Assembly: GCA_947581825.1 (NCBI GenBank)
Contig: CANPVP010000002.1
Span: forward strand, 104,747 to 168,746
From: an uncultured Clostridia bacterium
GTDB lineage: Bacteria; Bacillota; Clostridia; TANB77; CAG-508
Length of the DNA stretch: 64,000 bases
Direction of reading: 5' to 3'
Shown here: positions 7,766-62,745 of the stretch, in pieces
Position numbering within the stretch: position 1 is the stretch's first letter
How the letters are laid out: every line of letters starts with the position of its first letter
Notes under the pieces: generated by a model
Database searches by the model: none
The model's input: only the letters and a program-made list of their open reading frames with translations
Told to the model about the DNA's origin: nothing
Made by a program: the position numbers and the translations under genes

Positions 7766-8446
7766 ATGAATAACAATATTGTTATCGGAATAGAAGGTTT
7801 AGTAGGTGCTGGAAAAACATCTATATGTAAACAATTATTGAATAAAATACCAAATTCAATTTTAGTAAATGGTGGAAACTTATATAGGGCAATTGTATAT
7901 GCTATAATGAAGTCTGGTATAAATAAAGAAGAGTTACTAAAAAATGCCAATCAGATTGATATTAAAGAAGTAATGGATAAATTAAAAATTGAAATAAGGC
8001 TAGAAAATAGAGAAACAGAAATTTATATAAATGGAAATAAAGTTGAACAAGATACTTTGCAATCAAAAGAATCTTCAATAGCTGTTTCAGAAGTGGCTGG
8101 TATGGCTAAGAATTCTGGCTTATATTTATTTGGCGAAAAATTAATTGAAGAATTTAGAAAGCAAAGCAATGTAATTTTTTCAGGAAGAGATACACTAAAA
8201 ATATACCCTAATACAAAATATCATTTCTTTATAACTGCAGATATAGATGCAAGAGTAGAAAGAAAAAATATACAATATGAAGGAAAAGTAAGTAAAGAAG
8301 AATTAAAACAGCATATACTAAAAAGAGATGATTTACAAGAAAAAGCAGGCTTTTATAAAACATATGATAAAACTATTGTAATTGATACAACTGATTGTAA
8401 AACTGTAGAAGAAGGAGCCAATAGAATTTTAAAATACATAGTTTAA
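7766..8446 (+). CDS. cytidylate kinase-like (d)CMP kinase family protein
   Basis: P-loop GIEGLVGAGKTSICKQL, GGNLYRA (Cmk GAMYRA equivalent), and the LID region SGRDT...FFITADIDARVERK matching the Cmk pattern GRDIG...FLTAS.EERA.RR. Confidence 0.65.
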   Translation: MNNNIVIGIEGLVGAGKTSICKQLLNKIPNSILVNGGNLYRAIVYAIMKSGINKEELLKNANQIDIKEVMDKLKIEIRLENRETEIYINGNKVEQDTLQSKESSIAVSEVAGMAKNSGLYLFGEKLIEEFRKQSNVIFSGRDTLKIYPNTKYHFFITADIDARVERKNIQYEGKVSKEELKQHILKRDDLQEKAGFYKTYDKTIVIDTTDCKTVEEGANRILKYIV

Positions 8447-8482: not shown

Positions 8483-9889
8483 GTGGAAGAATTTGTAAAC
8501 AAAAAAGTAGAGGAGTTTAAATCATATATTTATAATAGAAAAGTAGCAATAATAGGTTTAGGAGTGAGCAATGTTCCTTTAATAAAATTCTTATATGATT
8601 TAGGTGCAATTATTACTGTATTTGATAATAGACCAGTAGAAAATATGCCAGAAGAAATACTACAAATATTATCAACTTGTAATATAGATAAAGCATTTGG
8701 TCCAGGTAATTTAAATAATTTATCAGGATTTGATATCATATTTAGATCTCCAAGCTGTTTGCCAACAACAAGAGAATTGGTTGAGGAAGAAAAAAGAGGA
8801 GCTATTATAACAACCGAAGTTGAAATGTTTATGAAATTATGTCCAGGAACAATAATTGGAGTAACAGGAAGTGATGGAAAAACAACAACTACATCACTTA
8901 TATACGAAATATTAAAACAAAAAGGATATAATTGTTATATAGGCGGAAATATAGGAATTCCATTATTTACAAGAATAGAAGAAATGAGACCTGAAGATAT
9001 AGTGGTTTTGGAATTAAGTAGTTTTCAATTAATGGGAATGGGTGTTAGTCCTAATATTGCTATCATAACTAATATAACTCCAAATCATTTAAATATTCAT
9101 AGTTCATATGAAGAATACATAGATGCCAAAAAGAATATATATAAATACCAAAATGAAAACGATATTTTAATATTAAATTATGATAATGAAATTACCCGTG
9201 AATGTGGATTAGAAGCAAAAGGAAAAGTTGAATTTTTTAGTAGAAAAAATAAATTAGATAATGGATTTATTGTAGATGAAGGTATAATAAAAATATGTGA
9301 AGACAAAATAAGAAGACATATATTAAATACTAAATCAACAATGCTTAAAGGGGAACATAATTATGAAAATATATGTGCAGCATTATTAGCGACTAGAAAC
9401 TTTGTAGATATAGAATCTGCAGTAGAAACAGTAAAGAATTTTCCTGGAGTACCTCATAGATTAGAATTAGTAAGAAGATTAAATGGTGTTAGATGGTATA
9501 ATGATTCAATAGGTACATCTCCAGTAAGAACAATTGCAGGATTAAATGCTTTTCAAGAGGAGATAATATTAATAGCAGGAGGATATGACAAGAATTTAGA
9601 CTATACACCAATAGGAAGACCAATTCTAAATAAAACAAAAGGGGTAATACTTTTAGGACAGACAGCGGATAAGATTATAGAAGCAATAGAAAATGAATCA
9701 AAAATAAGAAATAAAACAGTAGATATTTATAAATGTAAAACTTTAGAGCAATGCGTTAAACTAGCAAAGAATATAGCAAAGCCTGGTCAAATTGTATTAT
9801 TTTCACCAGCAAGTGCAAGCTTTGATATGTTTAAGAACTTTGAGGAAAGAGGAAACAAATTTAAAGAACTTGTAAATGGATTAGAATAA
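8483..9889 (+). CDS. murD: UDP-N-acetylmuramoyl-L-alanine--D-glutamate ligase (canonical-looking MurD)
   Basis: N-terminal Rossmann IIGLGVSN, P-loop GVTGSDGKTTTTS, NHLNIH...YIDAKKNIYKY (carbamylated-Lys region), PHRLELV, C-terminal SPASASFDMFKNFEERG. GTG start with G-rich ribosome binding site. Confidence 0.8.
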   Translation: MEEFVNKKVEEFKSYIYNRKVAIIGLGVSNVPLIKFLYDLGAIITVFDNRPVENMPEEILQILSTCNIDKAFGPGNLNNLSGFDIIFRSPSCLPTTRELVEEEKRGAIITTEVEMFMKLCPGTIIGVTGSDGKTTTTSLIYEILKQKGYNCYIGGNIGIPLFTRIEEMRPEDIVVLELSSFQLMGMGVSPNIAIITNITPNHLNIHSSYEEYIDAKKNIYKYQNENDILILNYDNEITRECGLEAKGKVEFFSRKNKLDNGFIVDEGIIKICEDKIRRHILNTKSTMLKGEHNYENICAALLATRNFVDIESAVETVKNFPGVPHRLELVRRLNGVRWYNDSIGTSPVRTIAGLNAFQEEIILIAGGYDKNLDYTPIGRPILNKTKGVILLGQTADKIIEAIENESKIRNKTVDIYKCKTLEQCVKLAKNIAKPGQIVLFSPASASFDMFKNFEERGNKFKELVNGLE

Positions 9890-9918
9890 AGGGAAAATTA
9901 TAAATAGTTATTTTGATG

Positions 9919-9949
9919 GCAAGTGGTTTACTAATCACTTGCTTTTGTG
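9919..9949 (+). terminator. rho-independent terminator after murD (gcaagtg-loop-cacttgc-TTTTGTG)
   Basis: 7-bp stem plus T-run, 30 nt after the murD stop. Confidence 0.55.
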
Positions 9950-9989: not shown

Positions 9990-10652
9990 ATGAAAACTAT
10001 ATTAGTTGTGGAAGATGATATGGATATTCACAATTTAATAAAAGAAGTGCTAGAACAAGAAAATTATAATGTTATAGATGCATATTCTGGAACAGAAGCA
10101 TTAATATTATTAAAAAATAAAAGAGTAGATTTGATATTATTAGATTTAATGCTTCCTGGATTAAATGGAGAAGAAATAGTAAAAGAAATAAAAAATATAC
10201 CAATTATAGTTATAAGTGCAAAAATATCTCAAGAAGACAAAATCAATGTATTATTAAATGGAGCAAATGATTATATTGTAAAACCCTTTGATAAAAATGA
10301 ATTATTAGCAAGAGTAAAAGTACAGTTAAGAATAAATGAGGGGAAAATAGATAATAAAGAAATCCAATTTAAAGATATGATTTTGAAAGAAGAGAATCAT
10401 GATATATATATTAAAGAGAAAAAAATACATCTAACTAAAACAGAGTATGCAATTTTAAAACAATTATTAATACATCAAAATCAAGTTATAACAAAAACTA
10501 AATTGTTAGAATTACTTAGTTATGACACTTTGGATTGTGATGAAAATTCTCTAAAAGTGCATATAAGTAATATAAGAAAAAAGATTAGAGAAATAACAGA
10601 AAAAGAATATATAGAGTCAGTATGGGGAATAGGCTTTAAGATTCATAAATAA
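9990..10652 (+). CDS. OmpR-family response regulator (REC + winged-helix)
   Basis: ILVVEDD...D52-type receiver and C-terminal trans_reg_C (VWGIGFKI). Sits upstream of the ABC ATPase, ABC-2 permease and histidine kinase of a Bce-like module. Confidence 0.85.
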   Translation: MKTILVVEDDMDIHNLIKEVLEQENYNVIDAYSGTEALILLKNKRVDLILLDLMLPGLNGEEIVKEIKNIPIIVISAKISQEDKINVLLNGANDYIVKPFDKNELLARVKVQLRINEGKIDNKEIQFKDMILKEENHDIYIKEKKIHLTKTEYAILKQLLIHQNQVITKTKLLELLSYDTLDCDENSLKVHISNIRKKIREITEKEYIESVWGIGFKIHK

Positions 10653-10685
10653 AATAGTAAAAATCTTTACTAAATTTTAACTATT

Positions 10686-10704
10686 TTCTTAACCGATTTC
10701 TTAA
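10686..10704 (+). promoter_or_regulatory. direct repeat TTCTTAA-N5-TTCTTAA (12-bp period) at the -35 region of the ABC operon promoter, a candidate response-regulator box
   Basis: Two exact TTTCTTAA octamers 12 bp apart, 40-55 nt upstream of the ABC ATPase start. OmpR-family regulators bind tandem direct repeats. Confidence 0.3.
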
Positions 10705-10741
10705 TTATTTAATTATAAAATAATATTGAAAGGAGGAGGTT

Positions 10742-11656
10742 ATGGAAAATATATTAGAAACTAAGCATATTGAGAAAAAATATAAGAAATTTAAAGCTTT
10801 AGATGGGATAAATATGCATGTTCCTAAAAAAGCAATATATGGGCTAGTTGGAAAAAATGGAGCGGGTAAAACGACTTTAATAAGAATTATTTGTGGTTTG
10901 CAAAAACCAACAAAGGGAACTTATACCATTTATAATACTGTTAATACAAGTAACCAAATAACAAAACAAAGAAAAAGAATAGGGGCAATAATAGAAGCTC
11001 CGTCAATTTGCTTAGATATGACAGCGGAAGATAATTTAAAAAAACAATGTAAAATTATAGGTATTCCTGATGAAGAAAATGTATATAAAATATTAAAGAC
11101 AGTTAATTTAGAAAATACTGGAAAGAAGAAAGCAAAGAACTTTTCGCTAGGAATGAAACAAAGACTAGGAATTGCTATAGCACTGGTAGGCAATCCAGAT
11201 TTTATAATATTAGATGAACCTATAAATGGTTTGGATCCAGCAGGAATAATAGAAGTAAGAGAATTAATTTTAAAATTAAATAAAGAAAATGGAATTACGT
11301 TTTTAATATCAAGTCATTATTTAGATGAATTATCTAAAATTGCTACTTGTTATGGCTTTATGAACAATGGAAAAATAGTAAAAGAAATTGATAAAGAAGA
11401 ATTAGAGAAAAGTCACAGAAAAAGAATAGAAATAAATGTTAATAATATAAAAGAATGCGTAAAATATTTAGAAGAAAATAAGATATCTTATCAAGTTATT
11501 TCAGATGAAGTAATAGATATATATGAAAAAGTAAATGTTTCAGAGATTGTAATAGCGCTTTCTAAAAGAGACTGTATTATTAATAGTTTTCAAGAAAAAT
11601 CTGAATCCCTAGAAAATTATTATTTAAATTTAATAGGAGGTGCAGATAATGTATAA
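10742..11656 (+). CDS. ABC transporter ATP-binding protein (BcrA/lantibiotic-immunity type)
   Basis: Walker A GKNGAGKTTL, signature FSLGMKQRLGIA, Walker B IILDEP. 304 aa with C-terminal extension. Confidence 0.85.
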   Translation: MENILETKHIEKKYKKFKALDGINMHVPKKAIYGLVGKNGAGKTTLIRIICGLQKPTKGTYTIYNTVNTSNQITKQRKRIGAIIEAPSICLDMTAEDNLKKQCKIIGIPDEENVYKILKTVNLENTGKKKAKNFSLGMKQRLGIAIALVGNPDFIILDEPINGLDPAGIIEVRELILKLNKENGITFLISSHYLDELSKIATCYGFMNNGKIVKEIDKEELEKSHRKRIEINVNNIKECVKYLEENKISYQVISDEVIDIYEKVNVSEIVIALSKRDCIINSFQEKSESLENYYLNLIGGADNV

Positions 11657-12513
11657 GTTATTAAAAGCAGGATTTTATAGATTAAGAAAAGAATTAGTTT
11701 TCAAACTGTTTATAGTTTCTTCGATTATAGTGGCTATATTTATTGCTAAAAAAGATTATAAAGCATGGGGACAAGTAGGAATAAATGAAGCAATAGTTGA
11801 GTTTATGATATATATAGGCTTTTTCATATCAATATTTGTGAGTATATTCGTAGGGAAAGAACATTCAGAAGGTATTATTAGAAATAAAATAATAGTACGG
11901 ACATAGTAGAACAGATATATATTTATCTAGAGTAATAATAAGTAGTATAGCATGCATGGCATGTGAGTTGATTTATGTAATTCTGGTAATATTAATGAGT
12001 TTTGTTATATTTGGAAATATACCACTTTCTGCAATATACTTTACTCCAAAAACTATATTATATATATTATTAATTATTATAGAATATTGTTCTATTTTTA
12101 ATTTTGTATCAATGATATGTTCAGAAATAACAGCTTCTATGATTATTAATATTTTATCTTTTTTTATAATATTTTCTATTGGAGCATATTTAGGAGGGAT
12201 TGCAAATAGTAGTAAATATATAAATGGAACATATACCGATGAAAATAATATTACTACTATTGTTAATCAAGAAATAAATCCCAATTATCCAGGAGATGAA
12301 AAAGTAAAAATGGCAAAAATAATTTGCCTATTTATTCCAGAAGAACAAGCAGGGAGCTTAATGGATGAAGCGAGTAGAGTTAAGTTGAATCAAATAGAAG
12401 ATTTAGAAATAAAAAATGAGTTTTTGAGATATACACCAATATGTGCGATAGTGCTAATTGGATTTGTAAATATTACAGGAGTATATGTATTTGGAAAAAA
12501 AGACCTAAAATAG
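11640..12513 (+). pseudogene. ABC-2 (lantibiotic-immunity MutE/EpiE-like) permease interrupted by a +1 frameshift at about 11896-11903 (ORFs 11640..11906 and 11956..12513)
   Basis: Frame A ends ...GIIRNKIIVRT*. Frame B is already open from 11896 as YGHSRTDIYLSRVIISSIACMACELIYV..., so a single extra base near gtacgga splits a contiguous permease of about 270 aa with 6 TM segments. Confidence 0.55.
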
Positions 12514-12523
12514 GAGGAAATTT

Positions 12524-13405
12524 GTGAACATTTACTTGGGAATAATATTTGTATTAATTATTATACTAACTATTATAAGTGCTAGGTTTTATTTAATAAA
12601 AAAATCAATAAAAGAAATAGAAGTATCTACAAGAGAAATATTAAAATCTGATACTAACAGTTTGATTACTATATCTACAGATAATAAAGAAGTAAAAGCA
12701 TTAGCAAAGGAGCTAAATATAGAGTTAAAAAATATAAGAGAGCAAAGACTTCAATATGAAAATGGAAATCAGGAATTAAAAAAAATAATAACTAACATTT
12801 CTCATGATATGAGAACCCCTTTAACTGCGATAAAAGGATATATAGATTTATTAAAAGAAGAAAATATAGAGGAAAAACAACAAGAATATTTGAGGATAAT
12901 AGAAAGAAAAACAGGAGATTTAGTGTTACTTACAGAGCAATTATTTGAGTTTTCAAAAATAATGGATACTGAAATAAAAATAGAAAAAGAAAATTGTTGT
13001 ATTAATGGAATGTTGGAAGATGCACTTACTAACTATTATACAATTTTCAAAGAGAAAAATATTATTCCAGATATAAATTTATGCGAAGAAAAAGTTTATA
13101 GAATGGTTGACAGAAATGCAATTAATAGGGTATTAGATAATATATTATCTAATATTAGCAAATATAGCAGTGGAGATTTAAAAGCGATTTTGGAAAAAAA
13201 TGGAAAGATAATCTTTTCCAATAAAGCAGAAGCTTTGGATGCAACAACAGTACAAAAAATATTTAATAGATATTTTACTGTAGAAAATGCAAAAAAATCT
13301 ACTGGAATAGGGTTAGCTATTGCTAAACAATTAGTAGAATTAAACGGGGGAAGTATAACAGCCCAATATGAAAACGGATATCTTATTATTGAGATAATAC
13401 TATGA
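12524..13405 (+). CDS. small intramembrane-sensing histidine kinase (BceS/SpaK-like)
   Basis: Short N-terminal TM, H-box ISHDMRTPLTAIKGYIDLL, G-box IGLAIAKQLVELNGGSI. 293 aa. Confidence 0.85.
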   Translation: MNIYLGIIFVLIIILTIISARFYLIKKSIKEIEVSTREILKSDTNSLITISTDNKEVKALAKELNIELKNIREQRLQYENGNQELKKIITNISHDMRTPLTAIKGYIDLLKEENIEEKQQEYLRIIERKTGDLVLLTEQLFEFSKIMDTEIKIEKENCCINGMLEDALTNYYTIFKEKNIIPDINLCEEKVYRMVDRNAINRVLDNILSNISKYSSGDLKAILEKNGKIIFSNKAEALDATTVQKIFNRYFTVENAKKSTGIGLAIAKQLVELNGGSITAQYENGYLIIEIIL

Positions 13406-14649: not shown

Positions 14650-15747
14650 ATGGTAATTAATTTAGCATATTGGGCAAAGGTTTTAAAAAGAGTATTAGCT
14701 TTATTATTATCTGTAGTTGGAATTTTTGTTGCAATAAAATTATCTATATTTTATATGCCTTTTTTAATTGCATTAATAATTGCATTAATATTAGAGCCAA
14801 TCATTAAATTCTTCATGAGAAATACACCATTAAATAGAAAAACTAGTTCAATTATTGTTCTAATAATATTTTTTGGATTAATAATTGGGGTATGTACATG
14901 GGGGATTACTCAGGTTGTTGCAGAATCTAATAATTTATTAAATGGATTGAATGAATATGTAGAACAAGCATATAATATGTGGACAGAATTCATACAAAAA
15001 ATAGATTTTAGCAGAATAAAAATTTCTGATGAGGTAAAGAAAACAGTAGAAGATACTTTTATGAACTTCTTAGGAAAAGGTTCTAATGCTATAAAAAATG
15101 TGCTAAATAAAGTGTTAAGTATTCTAACATCAATACCAACAATATTAATATATTCAATAATTACTTTGCTATCATTGTATTTTATAACAACTGACAAAGT
15201 TTATATAATAGACCAAATGGAACATCACTTGCCAAGAAAATGGGTAAATAATATATATGTACACTTGCGTGAAATTTTAGCAGTTCTTGGGGGGTATCTG
15301 AAGGCTCAAATAATTCTGATAATGATTTCTTTTTTTATAGTCCTAATAGGTTTATTTATTTTGCAAATAATGGGATATAATATAGAATATCCATTATTAG
15401 CTGCAATAGGAATTGGATTTGTAGATGCGCTTCCTATTTTAGGAACCGGTACAGTTATGATACCATGGATTATTATATCTTTTTTAAACAATGATAGTAA
15501 ATTGGCAATAGCTTTGTTGATATTGTATGTAATAATTGTAATTGTAAGACAATTATTAGAGCCAAAGATAGTAGGAAAGCATATAGGAATACATCCAATA
15601 TTTACGCTTATTGCTATGTACACAGGCTTTAAATTTATGGGAGTATTGGGAATGTTTATAGGACCAATATTACTTATAATACTTAATAATATATATGGAA
15701 CTTTGCTAGAGCAGGGAGTAGTAAAAACTATTTTAGATAGAAAATAA
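14650..15747 (+). CDS. AI-2E (UPF0118/PerM) family transporter, YtvI-like sporulation membrane protein
   Basis: 365 aa, 8 TM, conserved GxxxGP region (FMGVLGMFIGPILLII). Confidence 0.7.
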   Translation: MVINLAYWAKVLKRVLALLLSVVGIFVAIKLSIFYMPFLIALIIALILEPIIKFFMRNTPLNRKTSSIIVLIIFFGLIIGVCTWGITQVVAESNNLLNGLNEYVEQAYNMWTEFIQKIDFSRIKISDEVKKTVEDTFMNFLGKGSNAIKNVLNKVLSILTSIPTILIYSIITLLSLYFITTDKVYIIDQMEHHLPRKWVNNIYVHLREILAVLGGYLKAQIILIMISFFIVLIGLFILQIMGYNIEYPLLAAIGIGFVDALPILGTGTVMIPWIIISFLNNDSKLAIALLILYVIIVIVRQLLEPKIVGKHIGIHPIFTLIAMYTGFKFMGVLGMFIGPILLIILNNIYGTLLEQGVVKTILDRK

Positions 15748-19271: not shown

Positions 19272-19303
19272 AAAAGAAAGAAGTATTAATTTCTTTCTTT
19301 TTT
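19272..19303. terminator. bidirectional terminator (aagaaagaa-gtattaat-ttctttctt-TTTT)
   Basis: Lies between convergent genes 18534 (+) and 19302 (-). Confidence 0.55.
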
Positions 19304-19625
19304 AACTTTCAGCGATGACTTTAGCTATATTATAAATTAATTTTTGTTTTTCAGGGGAACATTTTTTTAACAATGAGCTAAAATCTCTTTGCATATAATC
19401 AGATGCATTAGAAGAAGAACCATTTAAAATATCTCCTTCAGATAATCCTAGGATGGAACATATTTCACTAAGTCTTGTTAGATTTATATGAGCATTACCA
19501 CGTTCAACTCTACTTAAAAAGGCAACAGACAAATCTAGTTTTTCGGCTAATTTTTCTTGAGTGAATCCTCTGGCTAAACGGGCTTTTTTTAATCTTTCGC
19601 CAATAATTATATAATCTAAAGCCAT
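19302..19625 (-). CDS. XRE-family helix-turn-helix transcriptional regulator
   Basis: IGERLKKARLARGFTQEKLAEKLDLSVAFLSRVERG helix-turn-helix. Divergent from the 19829/21210 pair. Confidence 0.8.
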   Translation of the reverse strand: MALDYIIIGERLKKARLARGFTQEKLAEKLDLSVAFLSRVERGNAHINLTRLSEICSILGLSEGDILNGSSSNASDYMQRDFSSLLKKCSPEKQKLIYNIAKVIAES

Positions 19626-19828: not shown

Positions 19829-21217
19829 ATGATAAATAACATGGAGAAATTTTTAGAACTAAGAAATAAGCATAAAGAGTTCATATATGATAGTTACAAA
19901 GTCTTTGAGGACAGTGAATATATATGTATCGAATATAAATTTGAAATTCCAGATTTAAAAATTTTTACTCCAAGCATAAAAATTAAGAAAAAGAGTTTAA
20001 TTGTAAATAATATAGAGAATAATAAAGAATATATAAATCATTTAGTCTTTCATATAGGTATGATTGAATTAATAAGTTATTGGAAATGTGTATGTTCTCC
20101 AAATGTAATAATAAAATGCGGAAAAATAAATGATGAACAAATTAAGTGGTTTAAAAAGTTATATTTTTATGGCTTAGGAGAATTGTTTTTTACAAACAAT
20201 ATAAAAACAAATATAAATGAATTTATGAATATAATTTGTGAAGGAGAAAAAGATTATTCTAGTGTAGAAGTAAATAGTAACAATTTTAGTTTCAAGAATT
20301 ATATAATTCCTATTGGAGGAGGAAAAGATTCTGTTGTAACATTAGAGTTATTAAAGAGTAAAGAAAATAAATTAGCCTTAATAATAAATCCAAAACCAGT
20401 AACTTTAAAATGTGCTGAACTTGCAGAAATAGAAGCAGATAAAATTATTGAAGTTAAAAGAGTAATAGATAAAGAATTATTAGATTTAAATTCTAAAGGA
20501 TACATAAATGGACACACACCATTTTCATCTGTATTAGCTTTTATATCATATTTGGTAGCTTTTTTAACAGGAAGAGAATATATAGCTCTATCTAATGAGT
20601 CAAGTGCAAATGAATCGAATGTAGATGGAGAGAAAATAAATCATCAGTATTCAAAAAGTTATGAGTTTGAAAAAGATTTTGAAGAATATTCAAATAAATA
20701 TTTAAAATTACCTATAAAATATTTCAGCTTTTTAAGACCATTAAATGAATTACAAATAGCAATGATATTTTCAAGATACGAAAATTATCATAAAGTATTT
20801 AAGAGTTGTAATGTTGGAAGCAAAGGAGAGGTATGGAAGTGGTGCTGTGAATGCCCTAAATGCCTATTTGCATATATAATGCTTAGTACATTTTTATATA
20901 AAGAAAAAATTGTAAATATATTTGGAAAAGATATGTTTGAAGATAAAAACATGGAAGAAACTTTTATAGATTTAATAGGAAAAGGTAAGAATAAACCATT
21001 TGAATGTGTTGGAACATATGAAGAAGTGAATTGTGCAATTAGTAAAACTATAAAAAATATAGAAGCAAAAGGTGAAAAGTTACCATACTTATTGGAACTT
21101 TACAAAGAAAATTATAAAATAGAAGATATTTCTGAGGAATTATTGAAAAGGTATAATAATGAAAATAATTTATCAGAAGAACAAGAAAAGATACTAAAGG
21201 GAGCTATTTATGATTAG
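19829..21217 (+). CDS. PP-loop (N-type ATP pyrophosphatase)-like protein with N-terminal domain of unknown function and CCxCxxC cysteine cluster
   Basis: The ORF track starts at GTG 19817. ATG 19829 follows GGAGGT. IIPIGGGKDSVVTLELL matches the SGGxDS PP-loop. Also SNESSANE, WCCECPKC and ECVGTYEEVNC. The stop overlaps the start of the downstream MurD-like gene (ATGATTAG). Confidence 0.55.
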   Translation: MINNMEKFLELRNKHKEFIYDSYKVFEDSEYICIEYKFEIPDLKIFTPSIKIKKKSLIVNNIENNKEYINHLVFHIGMIELISYWKCVCSPNVIIKCGKINDEQIKWFKKLYFYGLGELFFTNNIKTNINEFMNIICEGEKDYSSVEVNSNNFSFKNYIIPIGGGKDSVVTLELLKSKENKLALIINPKPVTLKCAELAEIEADKIIEVKRVIDKELLDLNSKGYINGHTPFSSVLAFISYLVAFLTGREYIALSNESSANESNVDGEKINHQYSKSYEFEKDFEEYSNKYLKLPIKYFSFLRPLNELQIAMIFSRYENYHKVFKSCNVGSKGEVWKWCCECPKCLFAYIMLSTFLYKEKIVNIFGKDMFEDKNMEETFIDLIGKGKNKPFECVGTYEEVNCAISKTIKNIEAKGEKLPYLLELYKENYKIEDISEELLKRYNNENNLSEEQEKILKGAIYD

Positions 21218-22604
21218 TAATTTAATTGAATATTTAAAAGATAAAAAAATATTAATTTTAGGATTTGGAGTAGAAGGACAGTCAACATATAAAGTAATAA
21301 GAAAATATTTAAAAGATCAATTATTATATATTGCTGATAAAGAAAAAAATTTTAATGAAAAATATGAGATGCTTACAGATGATGTCAATTCAAAATTTAT
21401 AAGTGGAGACGATTATTTAAAAAATATAGATAATTACGATTTGATAATAAAATCACCAGGAATATCACTTAAAGATATAGATATAACTAAATTTAAAGAA
21501 AAAATAACATCTCAATTAGAGTTGTTGTTAGAATTTTTTGATGTTTATACAATTGGTATAACTGGAACAAAAGGAAAAAGTACAACAAGTTCATTAATTT
21601 ATGAAATGATAAAGCAACAAGGGAAAAAAGTTTTGCTTCTTGGAAATATTGGAATTCCAATATTTGATTATATTGATGTAATAGAAAAAAATATGATAGT
21701 TGTGTTAGAAATATCATCTCATCAATTAGAATATGCCAAAAAATCACCTAATATTTCTATATTTCTTAATTTATATGAAGAACATTTAGATCATTATAAA
21801 TCAATTAACGAATATATAGAAGCAAAAGCAAATATTTTTAAATATAAGAAAAAAGAAGATTTCTTTTTATACAATGCAGATAACAAAAGTGTTAGAGATG
21901 TAGTGAAAAAGCATCAACAAGATATGAAAGAAAATTATTATAATGTATATCCTATAAGCTTTGAAAATAAAGAATATTATGAGAAGAATAAATTTGTTTA
22001 TGAAAACGGAGTAGTAAAGGATTCAAATAATGTAAAGTTATACAATTCAACTGATAAAAGAAAACTATTGGGAGATCATAATCTTAATAATATTATGTTT
22101 GTTTTGGCAGTTAGTGAGATTTTAAAATTAGATTTGCAAAAAACAATAAAAACAATAAATAATTTTAATCCATTGCCACATAGAATGGAGCTAGTAGGTA
22201 CTTTTGATGAAGTAACATATTTTAATGATTCTATAGCAACAGTTCCAGAATCAGCGATAAATTCAATAAAGGCAATAACGAATGTTAATACCTTAATAAT
22301 AGGGGGAATGGATAGAGGAATAAACTACAAAGAGTTTATAAAATTCCTAGAAGAAAGCAATATAGAGAATTTAATATGCTTACCAACAACTGGACATAAT
22401 ATAGCAGAACAAATAAAAAATGAAAAAATGAGTATATATAAAGTGGAAACAATGGAAGAAGCGGTAAAGATAGCAAAAGAAGTTACAAAAAAAGGAACTA
22501 ATTGTTTATTATCTCCAGCAGCATCTAGCTATGGATTTTTCAAAAATTTCAAAGAAAGAGGAGAAAAGTATAAAAGATTAATAAAAGAAGCTTATTCGAA
22601 ATAA
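21210..22604 (+). CDS. second MurD-family (UDP-MurNAc-L-Ala--Glu ligase-like) paralog, translationally coupled to the PP-loop protein
   Basis: ILILGFGVEGQS Rossmann, P-loop GITGTKGKSTTSS, EHLDHY...EAKANIFKY, PHRMELVG, divergent C-terminus SPAASSYGFFKNFKERG. Ribosome binding site AAGGGAG inside the upstream gene. Confidence 0.75.
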   Translation: MISNLIEYLKDKKILILGFGVEGQSTYKVIRKYLKDQLLYIADKEKNFNEKYEMLTDDVNSKFISGDDYLKNIDNYDLIIKSPGISLKDIDITKFKEKITSQLELLLEFFDVYTIGITGTKGKSTTSSLIYEMIKQQGKKVLLLGNIGIPIFDYIDVIEKNMIVVLEISSHQLEYAKKSPNISIFLNLYEEHLDHYKSINEYIEAKANIFKYKKKEDFFLYNADNKSVRDVVKKHQQDMKENYYNVYPISFENKEYYEKNKFVYENGVVKDSNNVKLYNSTDKRKLLGDHNLNNIMFVLAVSEILKLDLQKTIKTINNFNPLPHRMELVGTFDEVTYFNDSIATVPESAINSIKAITNVNTLIIGGMDRGINYKEFIKFLEESNIENLICLPTTGHNIAEQIKNEKMSIYKVETMEEAVKIAKEVTKKGTNCLLSPAASSYGFFKNFKERGEKYKRLIKEAYSK

Positions 22605-22620
22605 AAATATTTTAAAAATT

Positions 22621-22651
22621 AAAGCCTACAGAAAGTATCTGTAGGCTTTTT
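22621..22651. terminator. bidirectional terminator (aaagcctacag-aaagtat-ctgtaggcttttt)
   Basis: Perfect 11-bp stem plus T-run after the MurD paralog. Also ends the nth/micro-ORF transcript on the minus strand. Confidence 0.7.
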
Positions 22652-59778: not shown

Positions 59779-61257
59779 TTATAGAATTATACAGATTAAT
59801 CCGCCACTACCTTCATTTATTATTTGTTCTAATGTTTCTTGCAGTTTACCTTGTGCATCTTCAGGCATACGAGATAGTTTATTTTGTAAGCCTTCATTTA
59901 CTAGTTCATGCAAACTTTTTCCAAAAATATTAGATTCCCAAATTTTAATTGGGTCACTTTCAAATTCAGAAAGTAGATAGTTTACTAAGTCTTCAGACTG
60001 CTTTTCACTTCCAACAATAGGAGAAACTTCAGTTTCGATGTCGGCACGAATCATATGAATTGATGGAGCTTTGGCACGAAGTTTTACTCCAAATCTAGAA
60101 CCTTGTTTTACCATTTCAGGCTCTTCAAGAATTAATTCTTCGATTGAAGGGCTAACAATTCCATAACCTTTTGCACGAACCTCTTCTAAAGCATAAGCAA
60201 TTTTATCATATTCCTTTTTTCTAGAAGCAAACTCGGTAATGATTGAAAACAAATCAGCTTCATTTGAAATCGAAACACCTGAGATTTCTGTTAATACATT
60301 ATAAAATAAAGATTCGTTAATTGTTATTAAAATAGATGCAGAACCATTTCCTAAATCAATTGATTGTAAACTAGTATTTGTTATAATATCAGTTTTTTGT
60401 ATTTGTGTTACAGAATTATCTATTTGCTTTATGAGTTTAATACCAGAAAAAGCAGTTTTTATTTCAGAATATAATGTTTGTTTTAATGAATGATTGTCAG
60501 GAAGACCATCAATCCATTTAGGATATGATATATTTATAGTATCTATAGGAAATTCATATAGAATTTTACTAAAAATATTATTTATATCTTGATTACTTAG
60601 ATTAGAACAATCAATAGCTACTACAGGTGTTGAATATTTAGATTCTAAGTCTGAAGCTAAAGCGGTTGTATAATCTGAAGTAGGATCATTTGAATTTAAA
60701 ACAATAACAAAAGGTTTATTAAGAGCCTTTAATTCATTTACAACACGTTCTTCAGCTTCAATATAGTCTTCACGAGGAATATCAGTTATACTACCATCAG
60801 TTGTTATTAAAACTCCAATAGTTGAATGCTCTTCAATAACTTTTTTTGTACCAATCTCAGCAGCTAATTCAAATGGCATTTCTTCTGTTGACCATGGAGT
60901 TTTTACCATTCTAGGAACATCATCTTCTAAATAACCTAAAGCATTATTAACTAAATAGCCAACACAATCAACAAGACGTGTTTTTAATTTTAAATTATCT
61001 CCAATATTAATTTCTACAGCTTCGTTAGGAACAAATTTGGGCTCTGTTGTCATAATTGTTCTGCCAGCAGCACTTTGAGGAAGTTCATCTCTGGCACGTT
61101 CTTTTTTGTATTCATTATTTATATTAGGAATAACCAATAAATCCATAAATTGTTTTATAAACGTGGACTTTCCTGTCCTTACAGGGCCAACAACACCAAC
61201 ATAAATGTCACCACCTGTACGAGTTTGTATATCTTGATAGATATCTAAATTTTCCAT
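59779..61257 (-). CDS. spoIVA: stage IV sporulation protein A
   Basis: N-terminal Walker A GVVGPVRTGKSTFIKQFM, 492 aa, very high conservation. Confidence 0.95.
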   Translation of the reverse strand: MENLDIYQDIQTRTGGDIYVGVVGPVRTGKSTFIKQFMDLLVIPNINNEYKKERARDELPQSAAGRTIMTTEPKFVPNEAVEINIGDNLKLKTRLVDCVGYLVNNALGYLEDDVPRMVKTPWSTEEMPFELAAEIGTKKVIEEHSTIGVLITTDGSITDIPREDYIEAEERVVNELKALNKPFVIVLNSNDPTSDYTTALASDLESKYSTPVVAIDCSNLSNQDINNIFSKILYEFPIDTINISYPKWIDGLPDNHSLKQTLYSEIKTAFSGIKLIKQIDNSVTQIQKTDIITNTSLQSIDLGNGSASILITINESLFYNVLTEISGVSISNEADLFSIITEFASRKKEYDKIAYALEEVRAKGYGIVSPSIEELILEEPEMVKQGSRFGVKLRAKAPSIHMIRADIETEVSPIVGSEKQSEDLVNYLLSEFESDPIKIWESNIFGKSLHELVNEGLQNKLSRMPEDAQGKLQETLEQIINEGSGGLICIIL

Positions 61258-61479: not shown

Positions 61480-62745
61480 ATGGCAGATGAAATAGTAGCA
61501 GTTATAATGGCAGCAGGAAAAGGAACTAGAATGAAAACAAATAAATCAAAAGTTGTACATAAAATATATGGAAAAGAATTAGTAAAAAGAGTAGTGGAAA
61601 CAGCTCAAAAATTAAATGTAGATGATATAATAACTGTTGTAGGCTATAAAAAAGAGCAAGTTCAAGCAGTATTAGGCGATAGCGTAAAATATGCTGTTCA
61701 AGAAGAAATGTTAGGAACAGGGCATGCTGTACTTCAAGCAGAAAAATATTTAAAAGACAAAACAGGAAAAGTTATTATTTTATCAGGAGATGTGCCAATA
61801 CTTAGAGCAGAAACTTTGAGAAAATTAATCGAAAAAAGTATTCATGATAAAGAATATGCTACAGTTCTTACTGCAAAATATGACAATCCAACAGGATACG
61901 GAAGAATATTAAGAGATATAGGTGGAAGTGTTAAAGCAATTGTAGAAGAAAAAGATGCAACACCAGCTCAACGTGCAATAAAAGAAATTAATGCAGGAGT
62001 ATATTGCTTTGATATACAAGAACTTTTAAAAGCTTTAAAGGAATTAAAGCCAGATAATGCACAAGGAGAATATTATTTACCAGATGCAATAAGAATAATG
62101 AATGATAAAGGACTAAAAACAGGTGCAATAATAATTGAAGACAATACTGAAATATTAGGTATAAATGATAGAGCTCAACTAGAATTGCTTACGAGAGTTT
62201 TAAAAAATCGTATAAATAAAGAACATATGGCAAACGGAGTTACTATAGAAGATAGTGATAATACATACATATATGATGATGTCGTAATAGGAAGAGATAC
62301 AGTTATTCATCCAAATACAACAATAAAATCAGGAGTAGAAATAGGTGAAGACTGTGAAATTGGTCCTAATGCATATATAAGAGAAGGATGCAAATTAGCT
62401 AATAATGTAAAAATAGGAAGCTTTGTAGAAATAAAAAAAGCAATAATAGGTGAAGGCACAAAAGTACCACATTTATCATATATAGGAGATTGTGAAATTG
62501 GAGAAAAAACAAATATTGGATGTGGAACAATAACATGCAACTATGATGGATTTAATAAAAGTAAAACTATTATAGGAAACAGATCTTTTGTTGGATCAAA
62601 TGTTAATTTAGTTGCACCAGTAGAAATAGGAGATAATACTTTTATTGCAGCAGGTTCAACAATAACAGAAGATGTTCCAGCAGATTCATTAGCAATAGCA
62701 AGACAAAGACAATTAAATAAAGAAGGTTGGAACAAAAAAGATTAA
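61480..62745 (+). CDS. glmU: bifunctional GlcNAc-1-phosphate uridyltransferase / GlcN-1-phosphate acetyltransferase GlmU
   Basis: AVIMAAGKGTRMK NTP-transferase motif and C-terminal left-handed beta-helix ending NYDGFNKSKTIIG...AIARQRQ. Confidence 0.9.
   Translation: MADEIVAVIMAAGKGTRMKTNKSKVVHKIYGKELVKRVVETAQKLNVDDIITVVGYKKEQVQAVLGDSVKYAVQEEMLGTGHAVLQAEKYLKDKTGKVIILSGDVPILRAETLRKLIEKSIHDKEYATVLTAKYDNPTGYGRILRDIGGSVKAIVEEKDATPAQRAIKEINAGVYCFDIQELLKALKELKPDNAQGEYYLPDAIRIMNDKGLKTGAIIIEDNTEILGINDRAQLELLTRVLKNRINKEHMANGVTIEDSDNTYIYDDVVIGRDTVIHPNTTIKSGVEIGEDCEIGPNAYIREGCKLANNVKIGSFVEIKKAIIGEGTKVPHLSYIGDCEIGEKTNIGCGTITCNYDGFNKSKTIIGNRSFVGSNVNLVAPVEIGDNTFIAAGSTITEDVPADSLAIARQRQLNKEGWNKKD

Follow-up and report, generated by a model that had tools for sequence, protein, structure and literature searches.

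This analysis concerns a 64-kb stretch of DNA (64,000 nucleotides, hereafter the window) from an uncultured Clostridia bacterium (contig CANPVP010000002.1), which encodes two ligases of the MurD family 11 kb apart. The second ligase (21210-22604) is probably MurD2, and together with the gene directly upstream of it would constitute the known MurL/MurD2 bypass of peptidoglycan synthesis. We give this reading a probability of roughly 0.8, with the enzyme activities predicted from sequence. The first ligase (8483-9889, here called MurD1) most likely uses D-glutamate (D-Glu) and belongs to a third class, which also occurs in Oscillospiraceae. The searchable literature on MurL/MurD2 places the pathway in neither Bacillota nor Bacteroidota. 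What is new relative to that literature is the very wide spread of the system (at least 585 genome matches, in Bacillota and Bacteroidota) and its coexistence with a second MurD.

The MurL/MurD2 alternative route was originally reported from Xanthomonas oryzae (XOO_1320/XOO_1319; Feng et al. 2017, in PMC8788868, PMC5808125), where MurL consumes ATP and releases AMP (PMC8788868, PMC5808125). If the same chemistry applies here, two routes could run side by side. In route A, MurD1 would add free D-Glu, as a classical MurD does. In route B, MurD2 would ligate L-glutamate (L-Glu) to UDP-N-acetylmuramyl-L-alanine (UDP-MurNAc-L-Ala), converting ATP to ADP; the PP-loop enzyme MurL would then adenylate the new alpha-carboxylate, converting ATP to AMP, and epimerise the terminal residue one way, from L to D. 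Route B would have no need of free D-Glu. MurI achieves the same end as MurL/MurD2, D-Glu as the second residue of the stem peptide, but it is not related to them, needs no cofactor and takes free glutamate as its substrate.

The open reading frame (ORF) upstream of the second ligase is, by sequence and predicted fold, a MurL. Its true start is the ATG at 19829, with GGAGG 7 nt upstream. The domains MurL_N (PF26299) and MurL_epimerase_C (PF26298) are precomputed Pfam matches on the identical 462-aa protein in public assemblies, and the sole NCBIfam match is the MurL equivalog NF041275 (230.8 bits, E = 2e-68, 340/447 profile positions). A Xanthomonas reference came from a tblastn search of a plasmid collection, which returned a mislabelled 509-kb record of X. 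sacchari with an annotated murL; its product scores 836.5 bits, above the NF041275 cut-off of 700 bits. Over 330 aa, the window MurL shares 30% identity with that of X. sacchari (E = 7e-55), with the PP-loop, cysteine-cluster and PFECVG motifs aligned, and the two have the same domains and motifs. Among 53 diverse aligned homologues, GGGKD is invariant within a PP-loop-like GGGKDS motif (Ser in at least 90%), a WCxxCxKC cysteine cluster is present, and an invariant Cys lies inside a nearly invariant PFECVG.

An AlphaFold model built from the same alignment is confident, with a predicted local distance difference test score (pLDDT) of 94.8, and has a PP-loop fold, which fits the published use of ATP with release of AMP (PMC8788868, PMC5808125). 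The likeness to QueC and other PP-loop ATP pyrophosphatases (3BL5, Cap9 9NTO, LarE, TtuA, ThiI, NAD synthetase) is at the level of the fold only, with 11-18% identity. MurL differs from these enzymes in its extra N- and C-terminal domains and in its reaction, the epimerisation of a peptide terminus. A solved MurL structure was also sought by sequence search of the PDB, and the one match returned (E = 0.023) was spurious.

The two genes appear, from their arrangement, to form one bicistronic operon. The murL stop overlaps the ATG of murD2 by 8 nt, each gene has a Shine-Dalgarno sequence, and one terminator follows the pair. Such an overlap indicates coupling, and an earlier sequence-only reading, which had described the second ligase as coupled to a PP-loop protein, was right on both counts given the GGGKDS motif and the PP-loop fold. 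The order murL then murD2, in overlapping frames, is that of X. sacchari, where murL is followed by an overlapping gene annotated 'murD' (locus L093, 7136-8572). Because it overlaps a murL that passes the equivalog model, this 'murD' is taken to be a MurD2 orthologue.

The ligase itself can be assigned from its specificity residues. In X. oryzae MurD2, E197 and R358 correspond to D182 and K348 of E. coli MurD, and the E197D/R358K double mutant is converted fully to a D-Glu ligase; P433A and F435L leave the specificity of MurD2 unchanged, and K319T lets E. coli MurD accept L-Glu (PMC8788868). The corresponding residues are compared in Table 1.

Table 1. Residues at specificity-related positions, numbered here and throughout as in E. 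coli MurD (sequence from NC_000913).
Protein	182	319	348	414-416
E. coli MurD	D	K	K	A-S-L
X. sacchari MurD2	E	I	R	P-S-F
Window 21210, predicted MurD2	E	I	R	S-S-Y
Window 8483, MurD1	N	I	K	A-S-F
11 named canonical MurDs	D/A/T	K in 11/11	K/R	

The canonical set comprised the MurDs of E. coli, S. aureus, Bacillus, Listeria, Paenibacillus, Acetoanaerobium, Fusobacterium, Prevotella, Bacteroides, Leptospira and Neisseria, 4 of the 11 being confirmed beside mraY in the division and cell wall (dcw) cluster. The PDB MurDs 3LK7 and 7SIR also have K319. Judged by these residues, the window MurD2 has the published L-Glu signature and MurD1 does not. E182 of MurD2 lies in the motif YEEHLD and R348 in GGMDRG, and with I319 they make up the same signature as in Xanthomonas. 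Positions 182, 319 and 348 could serve as a simple annotation rule that separates MurD2 from MurD.

Both window ligases resemble canonical MurD in their three-domain Mur ligase architecture and in keeping every catalytic residue. The sequence-only reading had identified two complete MurD-family genes, and both indeed pass the murD equivalog model TIGR01087 (cut-off 211.95 bits; scores in Table 2) and carry Pfam Mur_ligase_M and Mur_ligase_C. Each keeps K115, N138, E157, H183, K198 (carbamylated), N268, N271, R302, D317, T321, S415 and F422 as well as PHRxE; the carbamylated lysine and the PHRxE motif reported earlier are thus borne out by alignment to E. coli MurD. The MurD-specific N-terminal domain, also reported for both, is found in the first ligase (MurD-like_N, 31.0 bits), while the second falls just under the cut-off (23.6 against 27 bits). 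At the four Glu contacts that were to be compared (T321, K348, S415, F422), MurD1 has T/K/S/F and MurD2 has T/R/S/F, plus Glu at D182. A MurT-like identity was considered and set aside: both ligases match the MurD-type N-terminal model, the second just below cut-off, and pass the full-length murD model.

Both ligases also differ from canonical MurD. Neither lies between mraY and ftsW or spoVE. Position 319 is Ile and not Lys in both; at position 182 MurD1 carries Asn and MurD2 carries Glu, and MurD2 also carries Arg at 348. The earlier statement that neither is in a dcw context holds, as no mraY, ftsW, murG or murI was found in the 64-kb window, in which essentially every sizeable ORF was annotated. 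A D-amino-acid aminotransferase gene (dat) is likewise absent from these 64 kb. The dcw position is typical of canonical MurD and not strictly defining.

The E182/R348 combination recurs in most ligases linked to MurL. When 1.84 billion cluster representatives (50% identity) were scanned in full with HMMER, MurL relatives turned up in 1146 clusters at E < 1e-30, and in about 37 of the best 150 MurL cluster representatives MurL and a MurD-like ligase form a single polypeptide. Among 31 near-full-length ligase domains fused to MurL, 27 have E and 4 have D at residue 182, 30 have I or L at residue 319, and all 31 have R at residue 348. A genome scan (one genome per GTDB species) gave at least 585 confirmed MurL loci, and 77 of the 79 assessable loci have a MurD-like ORF immediately downstream of murL on the same strand. 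The 75 ligases downstream of murL have E (64) or D (11) at 182, I (71) or L (3) at 319, R at 348 (74/74) and Y at 416 in 71. Pooling the adjacent and fused ligases, R348 is found in 105 of 105 with a residue there, and E182 in 91 of 106. On this sequence record, the E182/R348 ligase class is old, widespread, and almost always adjoining or fused to MurL.

The best 80 of these loci come from metagenome-assembled genomes (MAGs) of Clostridia, Bacilli, Erysipelotrichaceae, 'Tenericutes', Bacteroidales, Lachnospiraceae, Ruminococcus and Oscillospiraceae, and one of Saccharibacteria. The nearest MurL among the genome-scan matches listed is 61-63% identical to the window MurL.

These data bear on the idea that 21210-22604 is a redundant second D-Glu MurD, duplicated or horizontally acquired, beside an unrelated PP-loop gene. 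Such an origin would be in keeping with the fact that both ligases pass the murD equivalog model, and that NCBI names even the Xanthomonas MurD2 an ordinary murD. It is nonetheless extremely improbable, given the coupling implied by the 8-nt overlap, the near-constant adjacency of the ligase to murL, the dozens of MurL-ligase fusions, and an E182/R348 signature that sets the class apart from all canonical references. Moreover, MurD1 and MurD2 are only 33% identical; they are therefore old paralogues, and a recent duplication was rejected on this basis. The sequence-only reading had proposed that 21210 is a neofunctionalised paralog. A functional difference is upheld, since the protein is unusual at 182 and 348, but local duplication is not, because the gene belongs to an old and widespread class that almost always adjoins or is fused to MurL. 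The two outcomes that had been set against that proposal, a recent duplicate with identical Glu-binding residues or a protein without its catalytic residues, are both at odds with R348, the 33% identity and the complete catalytic set.

It is also very unlikely that the MurL-like/MurD2-like pair acts on some other substrate, such as a secondary cell-wall polymer, a capsule or a peptide natural product, with MurD1 alone serving peptidoglycan. MurL is only about 30% identical to the characterised clade, and ligase-less MurL-like genes occur on Pseudonocardia plasmids and in 2 of the 79 assessable loci, as would be expected if the fold had been put to other ends. However, this MurL clade includes a metagenomic protein (P0252, 932 aa) that is a MurE-MurL fusion, the N-terminal half passing MurE models (TIGR01085, 463 bits) and the C-terminal half being MurL. 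As MurE consumes the product of MurL, this fusion ties the clade to the stem-peptide pathway. In addition, the ligase has the full MurD catalytic set and a MurD-type N-terminal domain, and the neighbours of murL-murD2 are housekeeping genes, including mltG, with no biosynthetic cluster seen in the window annotation.

Cross-scoring with hidden Markov models (HMMs) separates the two ligases in a similar manner. The window MurD2 scores 635 bits on an HMM built from MurL-linked ligases only, versus 341 on a canonical-MurD HMM, and the held-out X. sacchari MurD2 scores 285 versus 249. MurD1 is equidistant, with 420 bits on the canonical and 410 on the MurL-linked model. The window and X. sacchari MurD2 proteins are each 28-29% identical to E. 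coli MurD.

Several observations count against the reading of a MurL/MurD2 bypass beside a D-Glu-type MurD1. The score of the window MurL is far under the cut-off of NF041275, which is a model specific to Xanthomonadales. Residues 414 and 416 of the window MurD2 are S and Y, where Xanthomonas has P and F. Trees give little help: in a first neighbour-joining tree (129 taxa), the deep splits had 2-6% bootstrap and a clade of MurL-linked ligases with Xanthomonas MurD2 was not recovered, and in a second tree with named references, these ligases did group together in the best tree, although only 52 of 200 bootstrap replicates (26%) recovered the clade. The MurD1-class clade was supported at 88-94% across both trees (94% in the first). 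Given the weak deep support, our assignment is based on signature residues, gene linkage and HMM cross-scoring. A further point is that MurD2 is not the only MurD in the window, unlike in the described hosts, so that route B may not be the main route. Finally, K319 is missing from MurD1, and as K319T E. coli MurD accepts L-Glu (PMC8788868), the stereospecificity of MurD1 is left uncertain.

The coordinates of the two ligases and their associated features are given in Table 2.

Table 2. Features of the two ligase loci in the window.
Feature	Position	Strand	Evidence
Cytidylate-kinase-like gene, directly upstream of MurD1	7766..8446	+	Pfam Cytidylate_kin 93.6 bits; TIGR00017 cmk 81.6 bits, under cut-off 135.55
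MurD1, MurD-family ligase, N182/I319/K348 class	8483..9889	+	TIGR01087 382.2 bits; 468 aa, GTG start
Terminator-like hairpin 3' of MurD1	9918..9943	+	11-bp stem, 4 GC pairs, then T-run
XRE-type helix-turn-helix (HTH) gene, divergent, upstream of murL	19302..19625	-	Pfam HTH_3/HTH_31, 107 aa; same position in sister species
Predicted MurL, PP-loop protein, 462 aa	19829..21217	+	Pfam MurL_N + MurL_epimerase_C; NCBIfam MurL match
Predicted MurD2, MurD-family ligase, E182/I319/R348	21210..22604	+	TIGR01087 350.3 bits; 464 aa
Bidirectional terminator-like hairpin closing murL-murD2	22621..22649	.	12-bp stem, 5 GC pairs, T-runs on both strands

MurD1 most likely ligates D-Glu, as judged from three lines of sequence comparison. 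It keeps all four D-Glu contacts (T321, K348, S415, F422); solved D-Glu MurDs match it better than they match MurD2 (on 3LK7, 245.8 versus 158.5 bits); and its N/I/K pattern is nearly the D/I/K of the engineered MurD2 double mutant that uses D-Glu. Its best PDB match is the S. agalactiae MurD, at 245.8 bits. In place of the canonical NDSKxT, MurD1 has NDSIGT, with Ile at 319, and the absence of K319 may leave room for relaxed specificity. The pattern is a stable one: N182 and K348 occur in 120 of 120 close homologues, and K319 in none of them. The annotated murD genes of the cultured Oscillospiraceae Pusillibacter faecalis and Subdoligranulum variabile encode proteins 42-43% identical to MurD1 with the same N/I/K pattern, and that of Pusillibacter is likewise outside the dcw cluster.

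The flanks of MurD1 are a cytidylate-kinase (cmk)-like gene and a response regulator gene. The sequence-only reading had correctly noted the cmk-like gene before this ligase and the terminator after it. The same cmk-like gene (about 65% identity) lies directly upstream of an N/I/K-type MurD in three other lineages, and also in the sister species, while the other neighbours differ. The spacing between the two genes is 16-37 nt (the window; L089, 9308-11401; L091, 9285-11401; L108, 1315-3438), and the pair may be a conserved operon.

A housekeeping role for MurD1, as the sequence-only reading favoured, is plausible from these features, although the protein is itself non-canonical, with I319 and equidistant HMM scores. 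The roles could in principle be reversed, with MurL/MurD2 as the sole housekeeping route to D-Glu in a host that, like Xanthomonas, has no racemase, and with MurD1 as a specialised enzyme of relaxed specificity or one acting on another amino acid or another nucleotide-sugar acceptor. Its Ile, where all 11 named canonical and both PDB MurDs have K319, would agree with this, as would its intermediate HMM position and its pairing with a sub-threshold cmk-like gene conserved across lineages. An E. coli MurI query gave no match in the window or in any fetched locus; this search had no positive control, and a 64-kb stretch is uninformative on what lies elsewhere in the genome. We regard such a reversal as unlikely, since MurD1 keeps T321, K348, S415 and F422 and lacks the E182/R348 pair, its N/I/K residues come close to those of the D-Glu-specific engineered variant (D/I/K), and the same class is annotated murD in records of cultured Oscillospiraceae.

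The preferred reading, a D-Glu-type MurD1 beside a MurL/MurD2 bypass, implies that one organism holds two routes to the same stem peptide. The described hosts lack any enzyme that makes D-Glu, which is how their systems came to be discovered, and going by the review they have no other MurD (PMC8788868). A sister MAG (GCA_947626605.1, MurL 87% identical) has the same layout as the window, with the cmk-like gene and MurD1 at one place and the HTH gene, MurL and MurD2 at another. An uncultured Bacilli MAG (MGBC103251; L050, 7524-12713) has a canonical A/K/R MurD 1.1 kb upstream of murL-murD2; this K319-type MurD adjoins Rnf genes and an LtaS-like gene, and is not in a dcw cluster. The occurrence of a D-Glu-type MurD together with the bypass is therefore not a one-off. 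Our favoured explanation, offered as conjecture, is that both routes are kept for redundancy or for independence from D-Glu supply. Coexistence raises the question of whether the routes are redundant, differently regulated, or used for different walls, such as the vegetative wall and the spore cortex.

The host, which belongs to a different phylum, also sets this system apart from that of Xanthomonas. The window encodes YtvI (14650-15747) and SpoIVA (59779-61257), and its source is therefore a spore-former. The known hosts are Xanthomonadales, a few Alphaproteobacteria and rare actinomycetes, and they are reported to lack a D-Glu supply, whereas this spore-forming Clostridia bacterium has a second MurD-family gene 11 kb away.

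MurD1 and MurD2 have Ile319 and the motif NDSIxTxP in common, and canonical MurD does not. On a broader reading, which we consider possible but doubtful, many gut Bacillota and Bacteroidota would be independent of free D-Glu for their wall through MurL/MurD2, sometimes in parallel with a D-Glu ligase, and the N182/I319/K348 class of Clostridia would have branched from the MurD2 lineage and become D-Glu-specific in nature, a counterpart of the engineered E197D/R358K switch. If this were true, the pathway would not be the narrow, pathogen-specific drug target of the literature, and the stereospecificity of MurD would have been switched more than once.

The distribution of the gene pair has practical implications. 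MurL/MurD2 has been put forward as a target for narrow-spectrum antibiotics and described as confined to Xanthomonas, Stenotrophomonas and a small number of further genera (PMC8788868). The present evidence points to wide occurrence of the pair in uncultured gut anaerobes, and inhibitors would probably strike many commensals too. D-Glu auxotrophy inferred from a missing murI would be wrong for such organisms. MurD2 is also systematically misnamed 'murD' in records, that of X. sacchari among them, and standard annotation thereby hides its spread.

Other observations concern relatives of MurL. One MurL-ligase fusion (P0152, 1247 aa) has an extra C-terminal M20 peptidase domain, and another MurL homologue (P0144, 619 aa) has an inserted DUF559 domain. 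Stand-alone MurL-like genes with no adjoining Mur ligase were found at L106 (4764-6164, Pseudonocardia alni plasmid pPaSha1), L032 and L064. MurL-like genes are also present on the Pseudonocardia plasmids NZ_CP010991.1 and NZ_CP011869.1, and the plasmid copies are annotated as hypothetical. From these sequences, the MurL fold may have uses outside the pairing with MurD2. In a MAG labelled Candidatus Saccharibacteria (L024, CAPFSK010000003.1), a murL-murD2 pair with 50% identity could reflect either true spread into the candidate phyla radiation (CPR) or a binning error.

General scans of the window, which is AT-rich (about 27% G+C), added little on regulation. An Rfam scan found tRNA only, with no riboswitch or leader upstream of the MurD1 or murL-murD2 genes. 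A promoter scan was uninformative, giving 139 sites against 134 expected in DNA of 27% GC. The divergent HTH gene upstream of murL is a possible regulator, to judge by its domains.

Between MurD1 and the next gene shared with the sister species lies a cassette (9990-13405) of a response regulator, an ATP-binding cassette (ABC) ATPase, an ABC-2 permease and a VanS-like histidine kinase, of the lantibiotic or bacitracin-protection type. It is missing at that place in the sister species (L108), which points to an insertion or deletion between close relatives. The ABC-2 permease (11649-12513) is split into ORFs of 85 and 185 aa in the window and in L007, and is a single 288-aa ORF in a related contig (L006); in this strain, the split probably reflects a frameshift or a pseudogene. 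Public assemblies of this organism likewise show a tRNA (m7G46) methyltransferase-like gene (Pfam Methyltransf_4; window ~105-798, equal to L006 1507-2200) as two overlapping ORFs (85 and 160 aa), which suggests a frameshift. The GlmU ORF (61480-62745, 421 aa) matches GlmU models in two stretches and is somewhat short against profiles of 447-459 positions.

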